64,000 nt of DNA from positions 851-64,850 of the forward strand of contig CAYTFH010000015.1 in the NCBI GenBank assembly GCA_964437095.1. Reading direction: 5' to 3'. The DNA is from an uncultured bacterium (GTDB lineage Bacteria; Sysuimicrobiota; Sysuimicrobiia; Sysuimicrobiales; Sysuimicrobiaceae). The translations under genes and the position numbers were made by a program. Each line of letters opens with the position of its first letter. Positions within the stretch are counted from its first letter, which is position 1. The notes below the pieces were generated by a model. It was given only the letters and a program-made list of their open reading frames with translations. It had not been told where the DNA came from and searched no databases. Positions 8,280-64,000 of the stretch are shown one piece after another.

Positions 8280-8964
8280 GGAGACCTCCGCCCTGGTCCC
8301 CACCCGGGTCACCGTGGAGGTGGTCCGCCACGACCCCGAGGTGGTGGCGTACGTGGAGCGGGCCAACGAGTCCTTGGGCGTGCTGGGCTACACCGAGCAC
8401 GGGGTCCGGCACGCTTCCCTGACCAGCCGCATCGCGTACAACATCCTCCGCCGGCTGGGCTACCCGGAACGGGACTGCGAGCTGGCGGCCATCGCGGCCT
8501 ACCTGCACGACATCGGTAACCTCGTCAGCCGGCTGAACCACGAGCACACGGGGGCCCTCCTGGCCGGGGCCATCCTCCAGCGCCTGGGCATGGACCCCGC
8601 GGAGCGGGCGGTGGTGATGAGCGCCATCGGCAACCACGAGGAGTCCCACGGGCAGCCCGTGAGCGCGGTGGGAGCCGCGGTGATCTTGGCGGACAAGTCC
8701 GACGTCCACCGCAGCCGGGTCCGCAACCCCGACCCCGCCACCTTCGACATCCACGACCGGGTGAACTTCGCCGTGGAGCACTCCTTCCTCCGGGTGGACG
8801 AGCGGGCCCGGGAGATCACCCTGGAGCTCACCATCAATACGGAGAAGGCACCGGTGATGGAGTACTTCGAGATCTTCCTGTCCCGCATGGTCATGTGCCG
8901 CCGGGCTGCGGAGCACCTGGGCTGCGCCTTCAAGCTGCAGATCAACGGGGTGCGGTTCCTGTAA
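8272..8964 (+). CDS. HD-domain phosphohydrolase
   Basis: H...HDIG metal-binding motif (AAYLHDIGN); 8-nt overlap with gdh. Confidence 0.7.
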   Translation: MPEETSALVPTRVTVEVVRHDPEVVAYVERANESLGVLGYTEHGVRHASLTSRIAYNILRRLGYPERDCELAAIAAYLHDIGNLVSRLNHEHTGALLAGAILQRLGMDPAERAVVMSAIGNHEESHGQPVSAVGAAVILADKSDVHRSRVRNPDPATFDIHDRVNFAVEHSFLRVDERAREITLELTINTEKAPVMEYFEIFLSRMVMCRRAAEHLGCAFKLQINGVRFL

Positions 8965-9015
8965 GCGCGGTTTGACGGGGCCGGACCAGGGGGCTATCCT
9001 CGACCCGGAGCCGCC

Positions 9016-19800: not shown

Positions 19801-20700
19801 TTGCGCCGACGCCAAGCCGGGCCCCTGTGCGGCCGGCGGCCCCGCGCGGCGGGCCCCGGCGGGTTGCTGCTGGTGGCCGTCCTGTTCCTGGCGGGCTGCC
19901 AGCCCTACGTCCGCGTCAGCACTGCGGCCCGGGAGGCCTACCAGCCCCTGGAGGGGTTCGCGGTGCGCATGAACTTCATGCCCCGTAAGCCCGACGCGGA
20001 CGCGGGCAAGAAGATCTACGAAGCCCGCTGCGCCGTCTGCCACGGGCCGGAAGGGCGCGGGGACGGCCCCATGGCCCAGCAGCTCACCGCGCCGGAGAAG
20101 AACCCGTACACGGACTTTCTGAGCCTGTTCCGGATCCACCCGAAGACGGAACCCCTGCCGAGCCGTCCCGCGCGGTTCAACAACCTGGACCAGATGCGGC
20201 TGAACGCGCCCTTTGCCATGTTCGAGACCATCGCCCGGGGCCGGCCCCACACCGCCATGCCGGGGTTCCAGCACCCCGCCTACGGGGCCGTGGACGGGGG
20301 CGAGCCGAGGTTGTCCGACCAGGAGATCTGGGGCGTGCTGTTCTGGGAGTGGAGCCGGACCACCAGCCGTGAGCGCCTGGCACAGGGGCGGCGGATCTAC
20401 AACGAGATGTGCGCCAGCTGCCATGGGGTCCGCGGCGACGGCAACGGCCCGGAGGCCGCGAAGATCCGGGAGGAAGTGTGGACGTGGGCGCGGGGCGTGG
20501 GCCCCGGTATTTTCACCGACCGGGACTGGATGGCGTACCGTAAGCCCACGGAGCTGTACCAGAAGGTGGCCGAAGGGGTCCGGCGCCGCGGGCTGGAGCT
20601 CATGCCCGCGTACGCGGACAAGCTCACCCCGGACCAGATCTGGACCGTGGTAGAGTACCTGTGGACGTTCGTGTACACGCCTCCCCGGGAGATGCGGTAG
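19801..20700 (+). CDS. dihaem cytochrome c lipoprotein
   Basis: two CxxCH motifs (CAVCHG, CASCHG); lipobox LAGC; TTG start after AGGAGG (alternative ATG at 19666). Confidence 0.75.
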   Translation: MRRRQAGPLCGRRPRAAGPGGLLLVAVLFLAGCQPYVRVSTAAREAYQPLEGFAVRMNFMPRKPDADAGKKIYEARCAVCHGPEGRGDGPMAQQLTAPEKNPYTDFLSLFRIHPKTEPLPSRPARFNNLDQMRLNAPFAMFETIARGRPHTAMPGFQHPAYGAVDGGEPRLSDQEIWGVLFWEWSRTTSRERLAQGRRIYNEMCASCHGVRGDGNGPEAAKIREEVWTWARGVGPGIFTDRDWMAYRKPTELYQKVAEGVRRRGLELMPAYADKLTPDQIWTVVEYLWTFVYTPPREMR

Positions 20701-57721: not shown

Positions 57722-59194
57722 GTGAGGACCAAGCTCGGACTGCTGCTGGTGGTGTTGAGCGCCGTGGCTGGGCTGCTGTGGTCCCTGGGCCTGGGCTTCC
57801 CGCGGGCTCCGCAGCCCGTGGACGCCTTCCGCGTGCGCCGTGGCGACCTGGAGGTGACCCTGGCGGTAAGCGGGGTGGTGGAGGCCCGGGCCGTGGACCT
57901 GGCCTTCCCGCTGCCCGGCCGGCTCCGGGCGGTGGTGGCGGAGGGCCAGCGGGTGGCCGCAGGCCAGCTTCTGGCGGAGCTGGACGCCGGGGAGCTCCAG
58001 GCGGACGTGGCGCAGGCCCGCCAGGCCCGCCTGGCCGCGGAGGAGGAGCGGGCCCGCGCCCGGGCCCAGGTGGAGGCCAGCGTGCAGGAGCTCCGCAGGG
58101 CCCGGGCTGCCGTGGAGGCGGCTCGGGCGCAGGTGGAGCAGACCCGCGCGGCCTGGGCCGCGGCCAGGGCGAGGCTCGACGAGCTCCTGGCCTCTCCCCG
58201 GGAGGAGGACCTGCGTCAGGCGCAGGCGGCCTTGGAAGCGGCCCGCGCCGCCTGGGAGCAGGCGCGGCAGGCCCTGGAACTGCAGGAGCGGCTGTACCGG
58301 CAAGGTGCCACGAGCCGGGCGCAGGTGGATACGGCCAGAAGCCAGCACGAGGCCGCCCGGGCCCAGTACGAGCAGGCCCGGGCGGAGCTGGACCGGGTGC
58401 GCCAAGGCCCCCGCAAGGAAGCGGTGGCCGCGGCGCAGGCGCAGGTGCGGCAGGCACAGGGTGCCTACCGCGCCGCCCTGGTGCAGGTGCAGCAGGCCCA
58501 GGCCGCCGCCGCCGCGGCGGAAGCCGCGGTGGCGCAGGCCAGGGCCGTGGAGCGGGCGGCAGTTGCCCGCGCCGCGCAGGCGGCGGCCGCCCTGCAGGCC
58601 GCGCAGGAGCGCCTGGCCCGGGCCGCCCTGCGGGCTCCCTTTGCCGGCGAGGTGACGCGCGTGTACTTCCGGGAGGGTGCGTCGGTCTCCCCGGGAGTGC
58701 CCGTGGTGAGCCTGGCGGCGGCGGAGCGCTGGGCCACCGCGGAGGTGGAGGAAGCGGACGTGGGCCGGATCCGGGTCGGCCAGCGCGCCCGGGTCACCGC
58801 GGACGCCTATCCCGGCGTGGTGGTCCCCGCTCGCGTGACCCGCCTGGCGGGCCAGGTGGAGACGCGGGTAGGGAGCCGCGTGGTGCGGGTCCGCCTGGAC
58901 TTCGACCAGCCCGCGCCCTTCCGCGTGGGTACTGGGGTGGACGTGGACGTGGTCCTGCAGGTGGTCCCGCACGCGCTGCTGGTGCCCGTGGAGGCCGTGG
59001 CGTCCGCGGCGGACGGAGCAAGCCAGGTGTACGTGGTGGAGGGCGGGGTGGTGAGGGTGCGCCAGGTGCGCACCGCGGAGCGCAACGAGGACTACGTGGT
59101 GGTCGAAGGCCTGCGGGAGGGCGACCTGGTGGCCCTGGTGGAGCCCGGCTGGCTGCGGGACGGGCAGAGGGTGCAGGCGAGGTCCGTGCGATGA
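57722..59194 (+). CDS. efflux transporter periplasmic adaptor (HlyD/MacA family) with very long Ala/Gln/Arg coiled coil
   Basis: N-terminal TM, extended coiled coil, C-terminal beta-barrel ([19 protein letters not shown]). Confidence 0.8.
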
Positions 59195-59940
59195 CCCCCG
59201 TGGTGGACCTGCAGGACGTCAGCAAGGTCTACCGGCTGGGAGCGGTGGAGGTGCGGGCCCTGCGGGGTGTCCGGCTGCAGGTGTACCCGGGCGAGTTCGT
59301 GGCCATCATGGGACCTTCGGGCTCCGGCAAGTCCACCCTCCTGAACTTGGTGGGCTGCCTGGACCGGCCCACCAGCGGCGTCTACCGGTTGGACGGGCAG
59401 GACACCAGCCGGCTCAGCGACGACGCCCTCAGCGAGGTGCGCAACCGAAAGGTGGGGTTCGTGTTCCAGACCTTCAACCTGCTCCCGCGCCTGACCGCCC
59501 TGCAGAACGTGGAGCTCCCCATGCTGTACGCGGGGCTGCCCAGGCTCGCCCGCCGGCGGCGGGCCGCGGAGCTGCTGGCGCGGGTGGGCTTGGCGGACCG
59601 CATGCACCACCGCCCCCGAGAGCTCTCCGGGGGCCAGCAGCAACGGGTGGCCATCGCGCGGGCCCTGGCCAACGACCCGGCGATCCTCTTGGCGGACGAG
59701 CCCACGGGCAACCTGGACAGCCGGTCGGGGGAGGAAGTCCTGGCCGTGTTCCAGGAGCTTAACGACGCTGGAGTCACCATCGCCATGGTCACCCACGACC
59801 GGGAGGTGGCCGAGCACGCCCGGCGCATCGTGACCATCCGGGACGGCCGCGTGGTCCGGGACGAGTCCGTCCCCTCGCCCCGACGGGCCCGCGACGTCCT
59901 CCGCCAGCTTCCCTCGGAGCCCGAGCTCACTTCGCCGTGA
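59191..59940 (+). CDS. ABC transporter ATP-binding protein, MacB/LolD type
   Basis: [37 protein letters not shown]; ATGA overlap. Confidence 0.9.
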
Positions 59941-61145
59941 GCCTCCTGGAAGCCCTCCTAGCCGCCCTCGAAGCCCTCCGGGCCAATCCCCTGCGTTCCG
60001 TGCTCACCACCCTGGGGGTCGTCATCGGCGTGGCCGCGGTGATCACCCTGGTGTCCGTGGGCCAGGCAGCGCGAACCCGGGTGGTGGGCGAGTTCGCCAG
60101 CCTCGGCCCCGACCTGCTGTGGGTGCTGCCGGGGAAGGCGGAGGAAGGCCAGCAGTTCGCCACCCAGGAGGGGCGCTTCACCCTCACCTTCGAGGACGCC
60201 CAGGCCATCGAGCGGGAGGCCCGCGCGGTGGCAGGGGTGGCGCCGTGGCTGCAGACCTCCATCGAGGTCACGGGAGGCGGAAGGCGAGAGGTCACCACGG
60301 TGATCGGCACCACCGCGAGCTACCTGCAGGTCCGGGCCCTGCAGCTGCAGCACGGGCGGTTCCTGTCGGAAGCGGACCACCAGCGGCGCAAGCGGGTGGT
60401 GGTCCTGGGCCCGGTCCTGGCCCGCCAGCTGTTCCGCTCGCCGGAGCTGGCCCTGGGTCGCCGGGTGGTGATCAACGGTCGCGCCTTCGAGGTGGTGGGG
60501 GTTCTCCGCCCCCAGGGGCAGGTGCTGGGCGTGGACCTGGACGACCGCGCCTACATCCCCTTCGGCACCGCGCAGCTGCTGTTCTCCGTGAACTACGCGT
60601 CGTTCCTGTTCGTGAAGGCCCAGGACACCGCCTCCGTGCTCCGGGCCCAGCGGGAGGTGGAGAGGGTCCTGCGCCGGGAGCACGGGGAGGAGGACTTCAC
60701 GGTCCTCACCCAGAGCCAGTTCCTGGGCGCCCTGGACGCCATCCTGCGGGTCCTGACCATCGCCCTGTCGTCCATCGCGGCCATCTCCCTGGTGGTGGGC
60801 GGGATCGGGATCATGAACATCATGCTGGTGTCCGTGACCGAGCGGACCCGGGAGATCGGCATCCGCAAGGCGGTGGGCGCCAAGCGGTGGGACATCCTGG
60901 CCCAGTTCCTCATCGAGGCGGTGGCCGTCAGCCTGGTGGGCGGGGTCCTGGGGATGGCCGTGGGGTTGGGGGCGTCGTGGGCTTTGGCCGCGCGTCTGCT
61001 GGACCAGCCCCCCACCGCCTCCGGGGCGCTGCCCGTGGTGGTCCTGGCCTTCAGCTTCTCGGTCCTGGTGGGGGTGGCCTTCGGAGTGTACCCGGCTTGG
61101 CGTGCCGCCCGCCTGGATCCCATCGAGGCCCTGCGGTACGAGTGA
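59937..61145 (+). CDS. ABC transporter permease, FtsX/MacB type
   Basis: MacB_PCD periplasmic domain plus FtsX 4-TM C-terminus; GTGA overlap. Confidence 0.85.
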
Positions 61146-61155
61146 CCCGCCCCGT

Positions 61156-61183
61156 TTGACGAGTGCCGCGGACTCGCTATACT
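61156..61183 (+). promoter_or_regulatory. sigma-A-type promoter for the tRNA: TTGACG, 16 nt, TATACT
   Basis: -35 at 61156..61161 and -10 at 61178..61183, 12 nt upstream of tRNA 5' end. Confidence 0.55.
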
Positions 61184-61195
61184 AAGGGTTGGCGA

Positions 61196-61272
61196 CGCGG
61201 GGTGGAGCAGCCAGGTAGCTCGCCGGGCTCATAACCCGGAGGTCGCAGGTTCAAATCCTGCCCCCGCTACCA
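61196..61272 (+). tRNA. tRNA-Met (CAU), initiator-type
   Basis: near-identical to E. coli tRNA-fMet (CGCGGGGTGGAGCAGC...CTCATAACCCG...TTCAAATCC...CCCCCGC.ACCA); three G:C pairs in anticodon stem; C1/U72 unpaired; encoded CCA. Confidence 0.85.
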
Positions 61273-61300
61273 TTCCCCTGAGGCTTGCACAACGAGGGGT

Positions 61301-61339
61301 GGCCTGTGTCTTGCAGGCCCAGGGGTGGGGCTGTAGGCT
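61301..61339 (+). promoter_or_regulatory. candidate promoter and operator for the XRE gene: inverted repeat GGCCTG..CAGGCC overlapping TTGCAG, 17 nt, TAGGCT
   Basis: IR at 61301..61319; -35-like TTGCAG at 61311..61316; -10-like TAGGCT at 61334..61339, 12 nt before ATG 61351 (near-leaderless). Confidence 0.35.
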
Positions 61340-61350
61340 TGTGAGCGGAC

Positions 61351-61719
61351 ATGGGAACGCAGGAGGCGCCTCCGACCCTCGGGGAGTACGTGCGCCAGGC
61401 GCGGAAGCGGTCCCAGCGTACGCTGCGGGAGCTGGCGGACGCGCTGGGGATCACGCCCTCGTACCTCAGCGACATCGAGAACGATCGCCGCGTCCCCTCC
61501 CAGGAAGTCCTGGAAGGCCTCGCCAAGCACCTGCGGCTGGACCTGGACGAGCTGCTGGCCCGGGCCGGCCGCCTGGACCCGCAGACCCAGGCGTACCTGA
61601 AACGCTCCCCTGCGGCCGTCCGCCTGTTGCGCAGGGTCGCCGCCCGCCGCCTGTCGGAAGCGGACCTGGAGGAGCTCCAGCAGCGGGTGGAGAGGCTCGC
61701 GCAGCGCAAGAAGCCGTGA
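61351..61719 (+). CDS. XRE-family HTH transcriptional regulator (DdrO/phage-repressor-like)
   Basis: LRELADALGITPSYLSDIENDRRVPSQEVLEGLAKHL HTH resembles DdrO-type repressors. Confidence 0.8.
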   Translation: MGTQEAPPTLGEYVRQARKRSQRTLRELADALGITPSYLSDIENDRRVPSQEVLEGLAKHLRLDLDELLARAGRLDPQTQAYLKRSPAAVRLLRRVAARRLSEADLEELQQRVERLAQRKKP

Positions 61720-62453
61720 GACAGTACCGGGGACCGGACGGCTCTCTGCGGGTCTGGTTCGACCCTGCGGAGATCGACGCCGTCGCGGAGGACGAGTTGC
61801 AGCGGGCCGGCCTCCTGTCCACCCTTGACGCGCCCGCGGTGGACGTGGAGCGGTTCGTGGAGGTCCACCTGCAGGCGGACCTCGACCCGTACGCGCCCCT
61901 GCCGGAGGACGTGCTCGGGGCCACGGAGTTCCGTCCGGGGTTGCCGCCCCTGGTACTGGTGAACAAGGCCCTGACGGAGGCGGCGTGCGACGACCCGAGT
62001 CCTCCCCGCGGCGCGCGGGGCCGCTGGCGGGCCACCCTCGCCCACGAAGCGGCCCACATCCTCCTGCACCGAGCCCTCTCCGAGCCGGACCCCATGCAGA
62101 CACCCCTGCTCGACACGTCCTCCCTGGAGGCTGCGCCCGTCCAGCTCTTCCGGTGCCTGAAGCGCGAGGTGGTCTTCGGCGGCGGCAGCGACTGGCGGGA
62201 GTTCCAGGCGAACCGGTGCATGGCCGCCCTTCTCATGCCGCGCTCGGTCTTCCTGAAGGCCGTGGCCCGGGCCAGGGAGCAGGTGGGCCTGTTCTCCGAG
62301 GAGCCGCTGCGCGCCGAAACTCTGCCGCAGGTGGTTCGGCGGCTGGCCACCTGGTTCGACGTCTCCCGGGAGGCCGCTCGGATCCGGTTGGTGGAACTGG
62401 GTCTGGTCAGGTCCCCCGGGCAGGGGAGCCTGTACCCCGGGCGCTTCCTCTGA
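61716..62453 (+). CDS. ImmA/IrrE-family (DUF955) zinc metallopeptidase
   Basis: HEAAH zinc motif (LAHEAAHILLH); GTGA overlap with XRE gene. Confidence 0.75.
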   Translation: MRQYRGPDGSLRVWFDPAEIDAVAEDELQRAGLLSTLDAPAVDVERFVEVHLQADLDPYAPLPEDVLGATEFRPGLPPLVLVNKALTEAACDDPSPPRGARGRWRATLAHEAAHILLHRALSEPDPMQTPLLDTSSLEAAPVQLFRCLKREVVFGGGSDWREFQANRCMAALLMPRSVFLKAVARAREQVGLFSEEPLRAETLPQVVRRLATWFDVSREAARIRLVELGLVRSPGQGSLYPGRFL

Positions 62454-62503
62454 TAGGGTCCCAACCCCACTTGGACCGGCCCGCGACCTTCGGGCCGTGG
62501 TGG

Positions 62504-62532
62504 TTGACAAAGTAAGCCGACCGGCGTATTCT
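62504..62532 (+). promoter_or_regulatory. candidate sigma-A promoter: TTGACA, 17 nt, TATTCT
   Basis: consensus -35 at 62504..62509 and -10 at 62527..62532; about 330 nt upstream of rmuC ATG. Confidence 0.4.
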
Positions 62533-62866
62533 ACGACCGTGGTCTGAACGCGCCGTGCTCCTGGGTATAGCGTCCGGGGGGCCTGCGGGTACGGCAGCGC
62601 TCCGCAGGGGTTGGTGGTGTTCCGCGAGATGGTCAGAGGGGTCGGGGTGGCCTCCAAGGGGGGCTCGGGAGCCGGCACCCGCCGGCCGCGGCGGTCGGGA
62701 CCCCACGCTTAGGGACTGCGCGGGAGAGCGGCTGCGTGTGGGCGAACAACCAGGGCCGCCCGGCTGCGAAACGCCGCCTCTGCTCCGTTCAATCTGTGGG
62801 ATCGGTCCACCCAGGCGTGCTGGGGCCGAGGTCTTGCAGCACCCCCGGCCTCTGTGGGGGTAGGCG

Positions 62867-64000
62867 ATGGGCGCGTGGGTTGAGTTCGCGACAGGAGTCC
62901 TGCTGGGCGCGGCGGTGGCGGCGGCCGCTGTGGCCGCCTGGGCCGGGGCCCGCCGGCGGCACGCCGAAGCCGAGCTCGCGGCGGTACGCGAGCGGGTCCG
63001 CACCATGGAAACGGAACGCGCGGACCAAGCCCGCCGGCTGGAGGAGTCCATGCGCCGGGAGGAGGCGGCCCGGCACGAGTTGCAGCAGGAGGCGGCGCGG
63101 CGGGCCGCGGCCGAAGCCGCCGCAGCCCGGGTCCCGGACCTGGAGCAGAAGCTCGCCGACCGCGACCTCCGGCTGGCGGACCTGCAGGCCCGGGTGGCCG
63201 CGTTGCAAGCGCAGCTGGAGGAGGAGCGGCGCGCGGCGGAGGAGAAGCTGCGGCTGCTGGACGAAGCGCAAGCCAAGCTGGCCGACACCTTCCGGGCCCT
63301 GTCCGCGGAGGCCCTCACCCACAACAGCCACGCCTTCCTGCAGCTCGCCCGGGAGAGCCTGGAGAGGTTCCACCAGCTGGCCCGGGCGGACCTGGACCAG
63401 CGCCAGAGGGCGGTGGAGGAGGTCGTCCGTCCGCTGCACGAGCAGGTGGACCGGATCCGCACGTACCTGACGGAGGTGGAGAAGCAGCGGGCGGAGGCCT
63501 ACGGCGCGCTGAGCCAGCAGCTGCGGGAGCTGGCAGAGTCGCACCTCCCGCGGCTGCACCAGGAGACGGCGAACCTGGTGAAGGCCCTGCGCCAGCCCAC
63601 CGCCCGCGGCCGGTGGGGTGAGCTACAGCTGCGGCGGGTGGTGGAGATGGCCGGCATGCAGCCCCACTGCGACTTCGTGGAGCAGGCCACGGGTCAGGGG
63701 GAGGACGGCCGCCTGCGTCCGGACCTCGTGGTGCAGCTCCCGGGCGGCCGGTGCCTGGTGGTGGACGCGAAGGCGCCGGTGGACGCCTACCTGAGCGCGG
63801 TGGAGGCGGCGGACGAGGACAGCCGACGGCGATACCTGGCGCAGCACGCGAGCCAGGTGCGGACCCACATGGCCAACCTGGGGAAGAAGCAGTACTTCGA
63901 GCAGTTCGACGTGGCGCCCGACTTCGTGGTCATGTTCATCCCGGGCGAGGCGTTCTTCAGCGCCGCCCTGGAGGTGGACCCCGGCCTGATCGAGTTCGGC
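62867..64000 (+). CDS. rmuC: DNA recombination protein RmuC (3' end beyond window)
   Basis: own translation: N-terminal TM, long coiled coil, then RPDLVVQLPGGRCLVVDAKAPVDAY and DFVVMFIPGEAFF RmuC core motifs; open to window end (absent from ORF table because no stop). Confidence 0.75.
   Translation, partial: MGAWVEFATGVLLGAAVAAAAVAAWAGARRRHAEAELAAVRERVRTMETERADQARRLEESMRREEAARHELQQEAARRAAAEAAAARVPDLEQKLADRDLRLADLQARVAALQAQLEEERRAAEEKLRLLDEAQAKLADTFRALSAEALTHNSHAFLQLARESLERFHQLARADLDQRQRAVEEVVRPLHEQVDRIRTYLTEVEKQRAEAYGALSQQLRELAESHLPRLHQETANLVKALRQPTARGRWGELQLRRVVEMAGMQPHCDFVEQATGQGEDGRLRPDLVVQLPGGRCLVVDAKAPVDAYLSAVEAADEDSRRRYLAQHASQVRTHMANLGKKQYFEQFDVAPDFVVMFIPGEAFFSAALEVDPGLIEFG

Follow-up and report, generated by a model that had tools for sequence, protein, structure and literature searches.

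We analysed a stretch of 64,000 nucleotides (nt; hereafter the window) from an uncultured bacterium of the Sysuimicrobiota (assembly GCA_964437095.1, contig CAYTFH010000015.1). Near its end, a gene for an XRE-family repressor is followed by a gene for an M78 zinc metallopeptidase and, after a gap of 413 nt, by rmuC (Table 1). The GTG start codon of the peptidase gene overlaps the TGA stop codon of the XRE gene (GTGA), and an initiator tRNA-Met gene lies upstream. An initial annotation, made from the letters of the window alone, had described this order, namely the initiator tRNA, the XRE gene downstream of it, a start/stop-overlapped metallopeptidase with a HEAAH motif (LAHEAAHILLH) and rmuC as the next gene. 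All of these elements were recovered here; only the distance between the tRNA and the XRE gene had to be corrected from 79 to 78 nt. The annotation had also recognised the architecture of a protease-cleaved repressor switch, which is supported by the XRE-M78 pair. Contigs and loci carrying relatives of the peptidase were labelled L001, L003 and so on, L001 being a longer contig identical to the window. The peptidase sequence is unchanged on other contigs, and L001 extends 6.4 kb past the window end.

Table 1. Features of the locus, numbered from the first nucleotide of the window
Feature	Position	Strand	Evidence or remark
tRNA promoter, TTGACG-16-TATACT	61156..61183	+	10/12 consensus matches; mean of 0.0 such sites in shuffles
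Initiator tRNA-Met(CAT)	61196..61272	+	ARAGORN; Rfam tRNA, 63.6 bits; neighbour, outside the switch
XRE promoter, -35-like TTGCAG (61311-61316), 17-nt spacer, -10-like TAGGCT (61334-61339)	61311..61339	+	positional conservation
Putative operator O1, GTAGGC-TTGTGA-GCGGAC (GTAGGCTTGTGAGCGGAC)	61333..61350	.	overlaps -10 box, ends at ATG
XRE-family repressor, CapH-like, 122 aa	61351..61719	+	HTH_3, E=2e-16
XRE domain, helix-turn-helix	residues 10-70
XRE domain, C-terminal helical	residues ~75-122
M78 zinc metallopeptidase, CapP-like core, 245 aa	61716..62453	+	Peptidase_M78 PF06114, E=9e-10
Cargo promoter P_cargo, TTGACA-17-TATTCT	62504..62532	+	10/12 matches
Putative operator O2, GTAAGC-CGACCG-GCGTAT (GTAAGCCGACCGGCGTAT)	62512..62529	.	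within spacer and -10 box of P_cargo
Non-coding rmuC leader	62533..62866	+	conserved block CCGTTCAATCTGTGG at 62785-62799
rmuC, first cargo gene, 510 aa in full	62867..64000, runs off window	+	RmuC, E=1e-64

The two genes are translationally coupled and travel together in approximately 100 loci across many phyla. We consider them to be probably a two-gene transcriptional switch of the CapH/CapP kind that controls the adjacent immune operon of rmuC and type I-G cas genes. The switch is of the same superfamily as ImmR/ImmA and DdrO/IrrE.

The XRE repressor and the M78 peptidase

CapH and CapP repress a cyclic-oligonucleotide-based antiphage signalling system (CBASS), and with single-stranded DNA (ssDNA) present CapP cleaves CapH at F82|R83 (10.1101/2022.04.27.489752; 10.64898/2026.05.16.725639). 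In the protein of E. coli MS115-1, this site lies in the first helix of the CapH dimerisation domain (10.1101/2022.04.27.489752). The XRE protein of the window appears to have the make-up of a CapH-type repressor, that is, an N-terminal XRE helix-turn-helix (HTH) and a short C-terminal oligomerisation domain, which in CapH has two helices, within about 100-120 aa. Pfam HTH_3 was matched by residues 14-68 and the PADLOC capH model by residues 8-120, covering model positions 5-102 of 103 (E=4.6e-12). Searches of the PDB returned generic HTH matches to ClgR (8e-8), the N-terminal domain of CapH (7t5u, 5e-6), DdrO (7e-5 to 1e-3) and ImmR (7t8i, 3e-3). The similarity to DdrO is confined to the HTH, and that to ImmR is likewise limited to the generic HTH. 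The DdrO-like character that had been ascribed to the XRE protein is therefore not upheld, since DdrO (E=7e-5) ranks behind ClgR and CapH.

In the alignment of the XRE family, the motifs AGR and LFRR are invariant, and the region of the recognition helix, PSYLSDIENDRRVPS (SYLSDIENDRR), is nearly so, which fits one operator common to many phyla. The LFRR motif reads LLRR in the window protein (residues 91-94, L91-L92-R93-R94) and is situated in its C-terminal part. As CapP cuts CapH in the equivalent region, this motif is a candidate cleavage site.

The peptidase possesses the CapP-type HExxH M78 domain with a downstream glutamate ligand. Among its zinc-binding and catalytic residues, the family alignment shows no variation at H110, H114 and E162 and almost none at E111; further invariant residues are GRWRAT, H118, R146-C147, W160 and QAN..M..LLMP. 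The PADLOC capP model was matched at 3.8e-11 over no more than its positions 63-154 of 242. When the PDB was searched with a profile, CapP (7t5t) came first and IrrE orthologs next, none of them significant alone (E 0.21 to 2.7), and a plain sequence search against the PDB gave only spurious cytochrome oxidase matches. The peptidase motif GRWRATLAHEAAHILLHR aligns with GRMRFTQAHELGHYILHR of CapP, including an extra H-R that is missing in IrrE, and the profile alignments pair GRWRATLAHEAAHVLLHR of the peptidase with the same CapP segment and with RQRFTLAHEISHALL of IrrE. With CapP, the peptidase has the motif GR-R-T-AHE--H--LHR and the zinc-ligand helix E-QA---A--LLMP in common. The AlphaFold model (pLDDT 85.6, pTM 0.82) consists of a single peptidase domain with a short helical end (helices 203-227) that stops at approximately residue 230, and contains no strand of three or more residues beyond residue 83. 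Foldseek placed IrrE (3dti) first (E=1.2e-3, TM 0.44) and also found the M. tuberculosis regulator 6cyy.

A GAF domain was found neither in the PADLOC capP alignment nor in the AlphaFold model, and the whole peptidase family is compact, with 226-249 aa. The peptidase is therefore not a canonical CapP or IrrE. The former is longer (291 aa in the 7t5t chain versus 245 aa here, where the protein ends after the helical linker), and the latter is a three-domain protein composed of peptidase, HTH-like linker and GAF domain. CapP and IrrE bind ssDNA between the peptidase and GAF domains (10.64898/2026.05.16.725639; PMC10904395). Given that the GAF domain is missing from the window peptidase, so is this groove, which leaves its activating signal uncertain. 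Between HEAAH and E162 lies a loop of 47 residues, compared with 29 positions from H100 to E129 in CapP. Both loops contain a cysteine: the invariant Cys147 sits 15 residues before E162, and the zinc-binding switch cysteine of CapP, C113, 16 residues before E129, such a cysteine-switch loop being present in about one third of CapP proteins (10.1101/2022.04.27.489752). By analogy, Cys147 may serve as a CapP-like cysteine switch.

Promoters and putative operators

An alignment of the upstream regions of approximately 100 loci revealed a TTGnnn-17-TA(C/G)GCT promoter in front of the XRE gene, the -10-like box of which ends 11 nt before the start codon and thus leaves room for only a few leader nucleotides. 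The near-leaderless XRE transcript proposed in the initial annotation is in line with this family-wide arrangement. In the window itself, the promoter matches the consensus weakly (6/12). Its -10 box forms the left half of an 18-bp palindrome, GTACGC-N6-GCG(T/A/G)AC (GTACGC-N6-GCGTAC), which in most loci ends at the XRE start codon. With at most two mismatches over the 12 specified positions, this palindrome was present at the XRE start in 87 of 101 loci, 12 of which have it in perfect form. A weight matrix was built from the distant loci only, leaving out the close relatives of the window, and returned O1 as the top match of the 64-kb window (15.8 bits, per-position p=2.6e-7).

Other sequences were set aside. 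The inverted repeat GGCCTG-n7-CAGGCC, which the initial annotation had placed over the putative -35 of the XRE gene and taken as an operator motif, does exist (61301..61319), but it occurs at chance frequency, with approximately 0.58 perfect 6-bp-arm inverted repeats per 78 nt in this window of 72% G+C, is absent from the orthologous loci L003, L015, L110 and L114 and is probably without function; the conserved operator is the other palindrome, O1. The second-best matrix match of the window (15.1 bits on the - strand, 20610-20627, GTACGCGGACAAGCTCAC on the + strand) was treated as chance, because it is located inside a coding region, the 3' end of a 344-aa open reading frame (ORF), and within the chance range for 64 kb. 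The word GTCTTGCAG, obtained by a shared-word search of the XRE upstream region against the gap, stands upstream of both genes in the window and is not conserved in L003.

P_cargo is the sole consensus sigma-70 promoter in 9.2 kb of L001, and the promoter together with its embedded palindrome is kept in six orthologous lineages (including L003, L098, L110, L112 and L114). The palindrome, O2, scored 11.3 bits and was the third-best match of the window; the probability of such a match by chance is approximately 0.005 over the 413-nt gap and 0.0003 over the promoter alone. In the orthologous loci L003/L005 (19.4 bits for O2, 16.8 bits for O1) and L114 (16.1 bits for O2, 16.8 bits for O1), O1 and O2 are the two best matches of the whole locus, and the weight of the putative operator copies in the window rests on their position and on these orthologs. 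A second site of at least 10.8 bits was detected in at least 22 of 80 distinct loci, nearly always 17-130 nt past the peptidase stop codon. Fewer than one such locus would be expected by chance, as estimated from a per-position shuffle-based rate, which was used instead of per-locus p-values because these are limited by locus size. In a further group of loci, a TTGACA -35 box is followed four bases later by the right half-site. CapH recognises a palindrome within the promoter of the immune operon that it accompanies. The operator copy in the promoter on the rmuC side indicates that the pair probably controls rmuC, a possibility already raised in the initial annotation.

In L110, a 69% ortholog, an operator-like palindrome, GTTCGCGTACCAGCGGAC, is found at the junction of rmuC and cas3 (L110:11607-11624). 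With 16.3 bits it ties with the operator of the XRE promoter as the top match, and no site in the gap promoter is among the four best.

The conserved block CCGTTCAATCTGTGG of the leader, 45-100 nt 5' of the rmuC start, might act as a further site of regulation or be an element that resembles a CRISPR repeat. No conserved small ORF was found in the leader, and a search of the 413-nt gap and its orthologs for Rfam families gave no match up to E=1; the folding energy of the leader is ordinary (z=+0.92), and for a covariation analysis of the gap too few diverged sequences align. Directly after the peptidase stop codon and before the cargo promoter, a G+C-rich hairpin (CGGCCCG-cgacctt-CGGGCCG, 62477-62497) without a T run may separate two transcription units; a terminator scan did not flag it. 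The sequence GGCCGAGGTCTTGCAG, located at 62824-62839 and 28 nt ahead of the rmuC start, is a repeat of GGCCTGTGTCTTGCAG (61301-61316) with 81% identity, probably by chance, as the repeat is not conserved in L003.

Cargo genes in the window and in related loci

Past rmuC, L001 encodes a Cas3 helicase-nuclease, a protein of 723 aa and a member of GSU0053, which PADLOC identified as Cas3g (4.9e-274), Cas8g/Csx17 (3.9e-169) and Cas7g (1.2e-38). The hallmarks of type I-G, namely Cas3 with a C-terminal HD domain, Cas8g/Csx17 and Cas7g/Csb1 (GSU0053), are thus all represented in the PADLOC result. Judged by these matches, the genes from rmuC onwards form a type I-G CRISPR-Cas effector operon with rmuC as its first gene. 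In L005, the cas genes run on to a Cas4-Cas1 fusion. A CRISPR array was not found within the retrieved DNA of the window locus or of related loci.

RmuC-domain nucleases act in phage defence in the Shield system, which is known only in Pseudomonas and is unlinked to CRISPR-Cas or to an XRE/M78 pair (PMC10270631). The membrane-anchored Shield protein ShdA and the RmuC protein encoded here have the same layout, an N-terminal hydrophobic segment followed by the RmuC PD-(D/E)XK nuclease domain, their relation being demonstrated for the RmuC domain alone. The constant linkage of rmuC to cas genes suggests that RmuC is a candidate CRISPR accessory nuclease. No paper joining the terms 'type I-G', 'CRISPR' and 'RmuC' was found in the searched library, a limited check that is no proof of novelty.

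Orthologs 64-75% identical to the peptidase (L003-L006, L096, L097, L110, L112 and L114) originate from hot-spring and other metagenomes or metagenome-assembled genomes (MAGs) labelled Armatimonadota or Candidatus Tepidifontimicrobium (NCBI phylum Candidatus Sysuimicrobiota). On all contigs of sufficient length, XRE and peptidase are followed by a gap of 320-620 nt, RmuC and cas genes. The latter follow in one of two orders, cas3-cas8g-cas7g or GSU0053-GSU0054-cas3, and connect tightly to rmuC, which overlaps cas3 in L110 and is 8 nt from the next cas gene in L003. In contrast to this stable cargo, five different upstream neighbourhoods were seen among the orthologous lineages, with a tRNA and a MacB-type transporter (window), DUF72 and an unknown gene, a creatininase, xanthine-dehydrogenase-like genes or an unknown 221-aa gene 5' of the XRE gene. 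We therefore regard the pair as linked to rmuC-cas and not to the tRNA.

Comparison of L003 with L005 showed an identical peptidase, a near-identical gap and rmuC, and different cas cassettes. L005 carries cas3-cas8g-cas7g with 71-82% identity to the window genes; L003, L006, L096 and L097 carry GSU0053-GSU0054 and then a Cas3 that is only 35% identical to that of the window. This suggests, at the level of sequence, an exchange of cassettes downstream of rmuC. In L112, a 64% ortholog, the peptidase start follows the operator after only about 170 nt (8573-9001), and gene calling returned no XRE gene. The repressor seems to have been deleted or truncated there, with the peptidase and rmuC intact. 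In two reference MAGs (L015 and L016), the contig ends no more than 100 nt past the peptidase gene, possibly because a downstream region that is variable or repeated disturbed the assembly.

These loci bear on the idea that XRE and peptidase form a selfish, toxin-antitoxin-like pair, with XRE as antitoxin and the COG2856 peptidase as toxin, that has no regulatory link to rmuC-cas. XRE-COG2856 pairs have been predicted as type II toxin-antitoxin-like modules (PMC2701414), the depositors of 7t5t call it 'CapP toxin', and overlapping genes are frequent in toxin-antitoxin pairs. However, a second operator is situated in the cargo promoter and conserved in orthologs, the pair is stably linked to rmuC-cas across lineages, and the apparent deletion of XRE in L112 would be hard to tolerate were the intact peptidase a toxin. 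We thus consider a toxin-antitoxin function extremely improbable.

A regulatory role of the CapH/CapP kind is also suggested by the wider family. The peptidase family search yielded 748 proteins at E<=0.001, the best 120 of which are all at least 48% identical to the query, and a scan of one genome per species yielded 80 loci. Family members belong to Actinomycetota, Chloroflexota (many of them Dehalococcoidia), Myxococcota, Acidobacteriota, Planctomycetota, Gemmatimonadota, Armatimonadota and other phyla. In nearly all of approximately 95 loci, a cognate XRE gene (40-57% identical) is located directly 5' of the peptidase gene. Distant members of the pair, with 40-59% identity and from approximately eight phyla, stand in the same orientation upstream of defence genes. 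Among 100 downstream ORFs, the counts were ThiF/E1 12, SMODS 4 (5 by the PADLOC cyclase models), TIR 4, SAVED 2, GmrSD 2 and Multi_ubiq 2, beside DNA methylases and other families. A cyclase with a TIR-SAVED effector (L020) and a DncV-like cyclase with a patatin phospholipase (L052) are, by gene content, plain CBASS systems. L007 contains small ORFs with E2 and E1 inside a defence island that also encodes AbiEii, an SNF2 helicase and an MmeI-like enzyme, and L010 and L017 have a four-gene set including SbcC- and SbcD-like proteins.

Related CapH/CapP pairs flank DISARM and E1/multi-ubiquitin operons (10.1101/2022.04.27.489752; Calloji et al. 2026, 10.64898/2026.05.16.725639). Like a CapH/CapP module, the pair described here adjoins an anti-phage operon, which consists of rmuC and type I-G cas genes in the window and of CBASS, E1/E2 including E1/multi-ubiquitin (6e-type), TIR or GmrSD genes in relatives; this cargo pattern matches that of CapH/CapP regulators. 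In the window and in the examined relatives, the pair lies on the same strand as its cargo and not on the opposite strand as CapH/CapP do. In the window, a separate operator-bearing promoter stands between pair and cargo.

The cargo also bears on the reading preferred in the initial annotation, a chromosomal DNA-damage switch of the DdrO/IrrE type, the repressor of which would control repair genes with rmuC as one target. Such a system belongs to the same mechanistic superfamily, with a metallopeptidase cleaving the dimerisation domain of an XRE repressor and thereby inducing genes. In its favour, IrrE is the best structural match of the peptidase, the XRE protein matches DdrO, an operator copy precedes rmuC, E. 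coli RmuC is a recombination protein and CapH/CapP themselves respond to DNA damage (10.1101/2022.04.27.489752). In Deinococcus, however, irrE and ddrO are apart in the genome and act on a dispersed repair regulon via the radiation/desiccation response motif (RDRM), whereas here the pair is adjacent, co-transcribed and local, with a defence operon as cargo. Well-placed operator copies are the two local ones only, in the 64-kb window as in the orthologous loci of 9-20 kb. In addition, the peptidase has no GAF domain, and DdrO is a more distant match of the XRE protein than ClgR and CapH are; rmuC shares an operon with type I-G cas genes, and the relatives precede CBASS, TIR, E1/E2 and GmrSD genes and not repair genes. 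Taken together, we judge a DdrO/IrrE-type damage switch to be unlikely.

The location next to a tRNA gene raises the further alternative of an ImmR/ImmA-type immunity module belonging to a tRNA-integrated mobile element or island and controlling excision or transfer genes further out. In ICEBs1 and phage phi105, a repressor and an anti-repressor M78 peptidase are likewise encoded side by side, and ImmA is not known to have a GAF domain either. The pair stands directly after a tRNA gene, as does the 51%-identical pair of L027, which also follows a tRNA-Met (elongator type); IS21 and transposase genes occur near some relatives; and the neighbours differ in every lineage, which implies that the block moves. 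On the other hand, no integrase was called in the 9.2 kb of L001, and no repeat of the tRNA 3' end was found there or in the window, which extends the corresponding observation of the initial annotation beyond the window. Its view that the pair is not part of a prophage also holds, given that 2.9 million viral contigs yielded no member of the family and that phage homologs are at most 30% identical. ImmR/ImmA reside in mobile elements equipped with an integrase; here, what follows directly downstream are defence genes on the same strand, whose promoter contains an operator, and not excision or conjugation genes. A mobile-element immunity module is thus very unlikely.

Proposed mechanism and upstream neighbours

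For the CapH/CapP-like switch that we favour, we hypothesize the following mechanism. XRE dimers would bind both palindromes and repress the rmuC-cas operon as well as the XRE-peptidase genes themselves. The peptidase would become active upon a stress signal linked to DNA damage or to infection by phage and would then cut XRE within the first dimerisation-domain helix, the candidate site being L92|R93 in the (L/F)-R-R motif. The repressor would release the DNA, and the nuclease and CRISPR genes would be induced.

Several observations weigh against this interpretation. DNA binding, cleavage and induction are all steps that we infer. E. coli RmuC is a housekeeping recombination factor, so that rmuC need not be a defence gene here. 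Both operators of the window are degenerate, with matches at 9 (O1) and 10 (O2) of the 12 specified positions, and their scores are within or near the range of the best chance match in 64 kb (12.1 +/- 2.5 bits). A transcript from P_cargo would have a leader of 335 nt before rmuC (approximately 300-560 nt in orthologs). The peptidase has no GAF domain, and the loop of Cys147 was modelled at a pLDDT below 50, so that the cysteine switch is hypothetical. Finally, the published CapH/CapP regulators are divergent from their cargo (Lau et al. 2022, 10.1101/2022.04.27.489752). The missing GAF domain and a layout unlike the published divergent one point to a new variant and not to canonical CapH/CapP.

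More tentatively, the pair may represent an undescribed, GAF-less CapP-like clade with its XRE partners, distributed over at least eight phyla and using one universal operator, GTACGC-N6-GCGTAC, and would serve immune operons as a portable 'promoter cassette' on their own strand. In the Sysuimicrobiota/Armatimonadota lineage, infection or DNA damage could through such a cassette induce type I-G CRISPR-Cas and an RmuC accessory nuclease, by way of a sensor unlike the ssDNA/GAF groove of CapP and IrrE. Little is known about the coupling of CRISPR-Cas expression to infection. If true, a type I-G operon preceded by a protease-cleaved repressor would tie CRISPR induction directly, and in a testable way, to a signal of damage or infection. 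One operator conserved across phyla, with two copies per locus, makes binding and reporter experiments easy and regulated cargo predictable in any genome. The peptidase without a GAF domain raises the question of how such a switch is triggered without an ssDNA sensor.

By direct reading, the tRNA gene upstream has a mismatch at C1xU72, the pair A11:U24 and GGG/CCC in the anticodon stem. These features, including the three G-C pairs at the base of the anticodon stem, we take to be the marks of a bacterial initiator tRNA. No tRNA is present at this position in the closest orthologs, being absent from L003, L015, L016 and L096. In L027 ('Bacterium HR12'), the XRE-peptidase pair starts approximately 50 nt after the tRNA-Met (L027:1564-1700). 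As its G1-C72 end is paired and the GGG/CCC anticodon stem is lacking, this tRNA is not an initiator and belongs to the elongator Met or Ile2 type. In the window, two tandem direct repeats of 26 nt (CCTGAGGCTTGCACAACGAGGGGTGG and CCTGTGTCTTGCAGGCCCAGGGGTGG, 77% identical) occupy 61277-61328, between the tRNA and the promoter of the XRE gene. The second contains the -35-like TTGCAG, and both were not seen in orthologs. A three-gene MacAB-like efflux set is located 5' of the tRNA (57722-61145). A Pfam-type domain scan assigned a MacB_PCD/FtsX permease to 59937-61145, and the other members, a 490-aa coiled-coil protein and an ABC ATPase, were judged from their translations alone.

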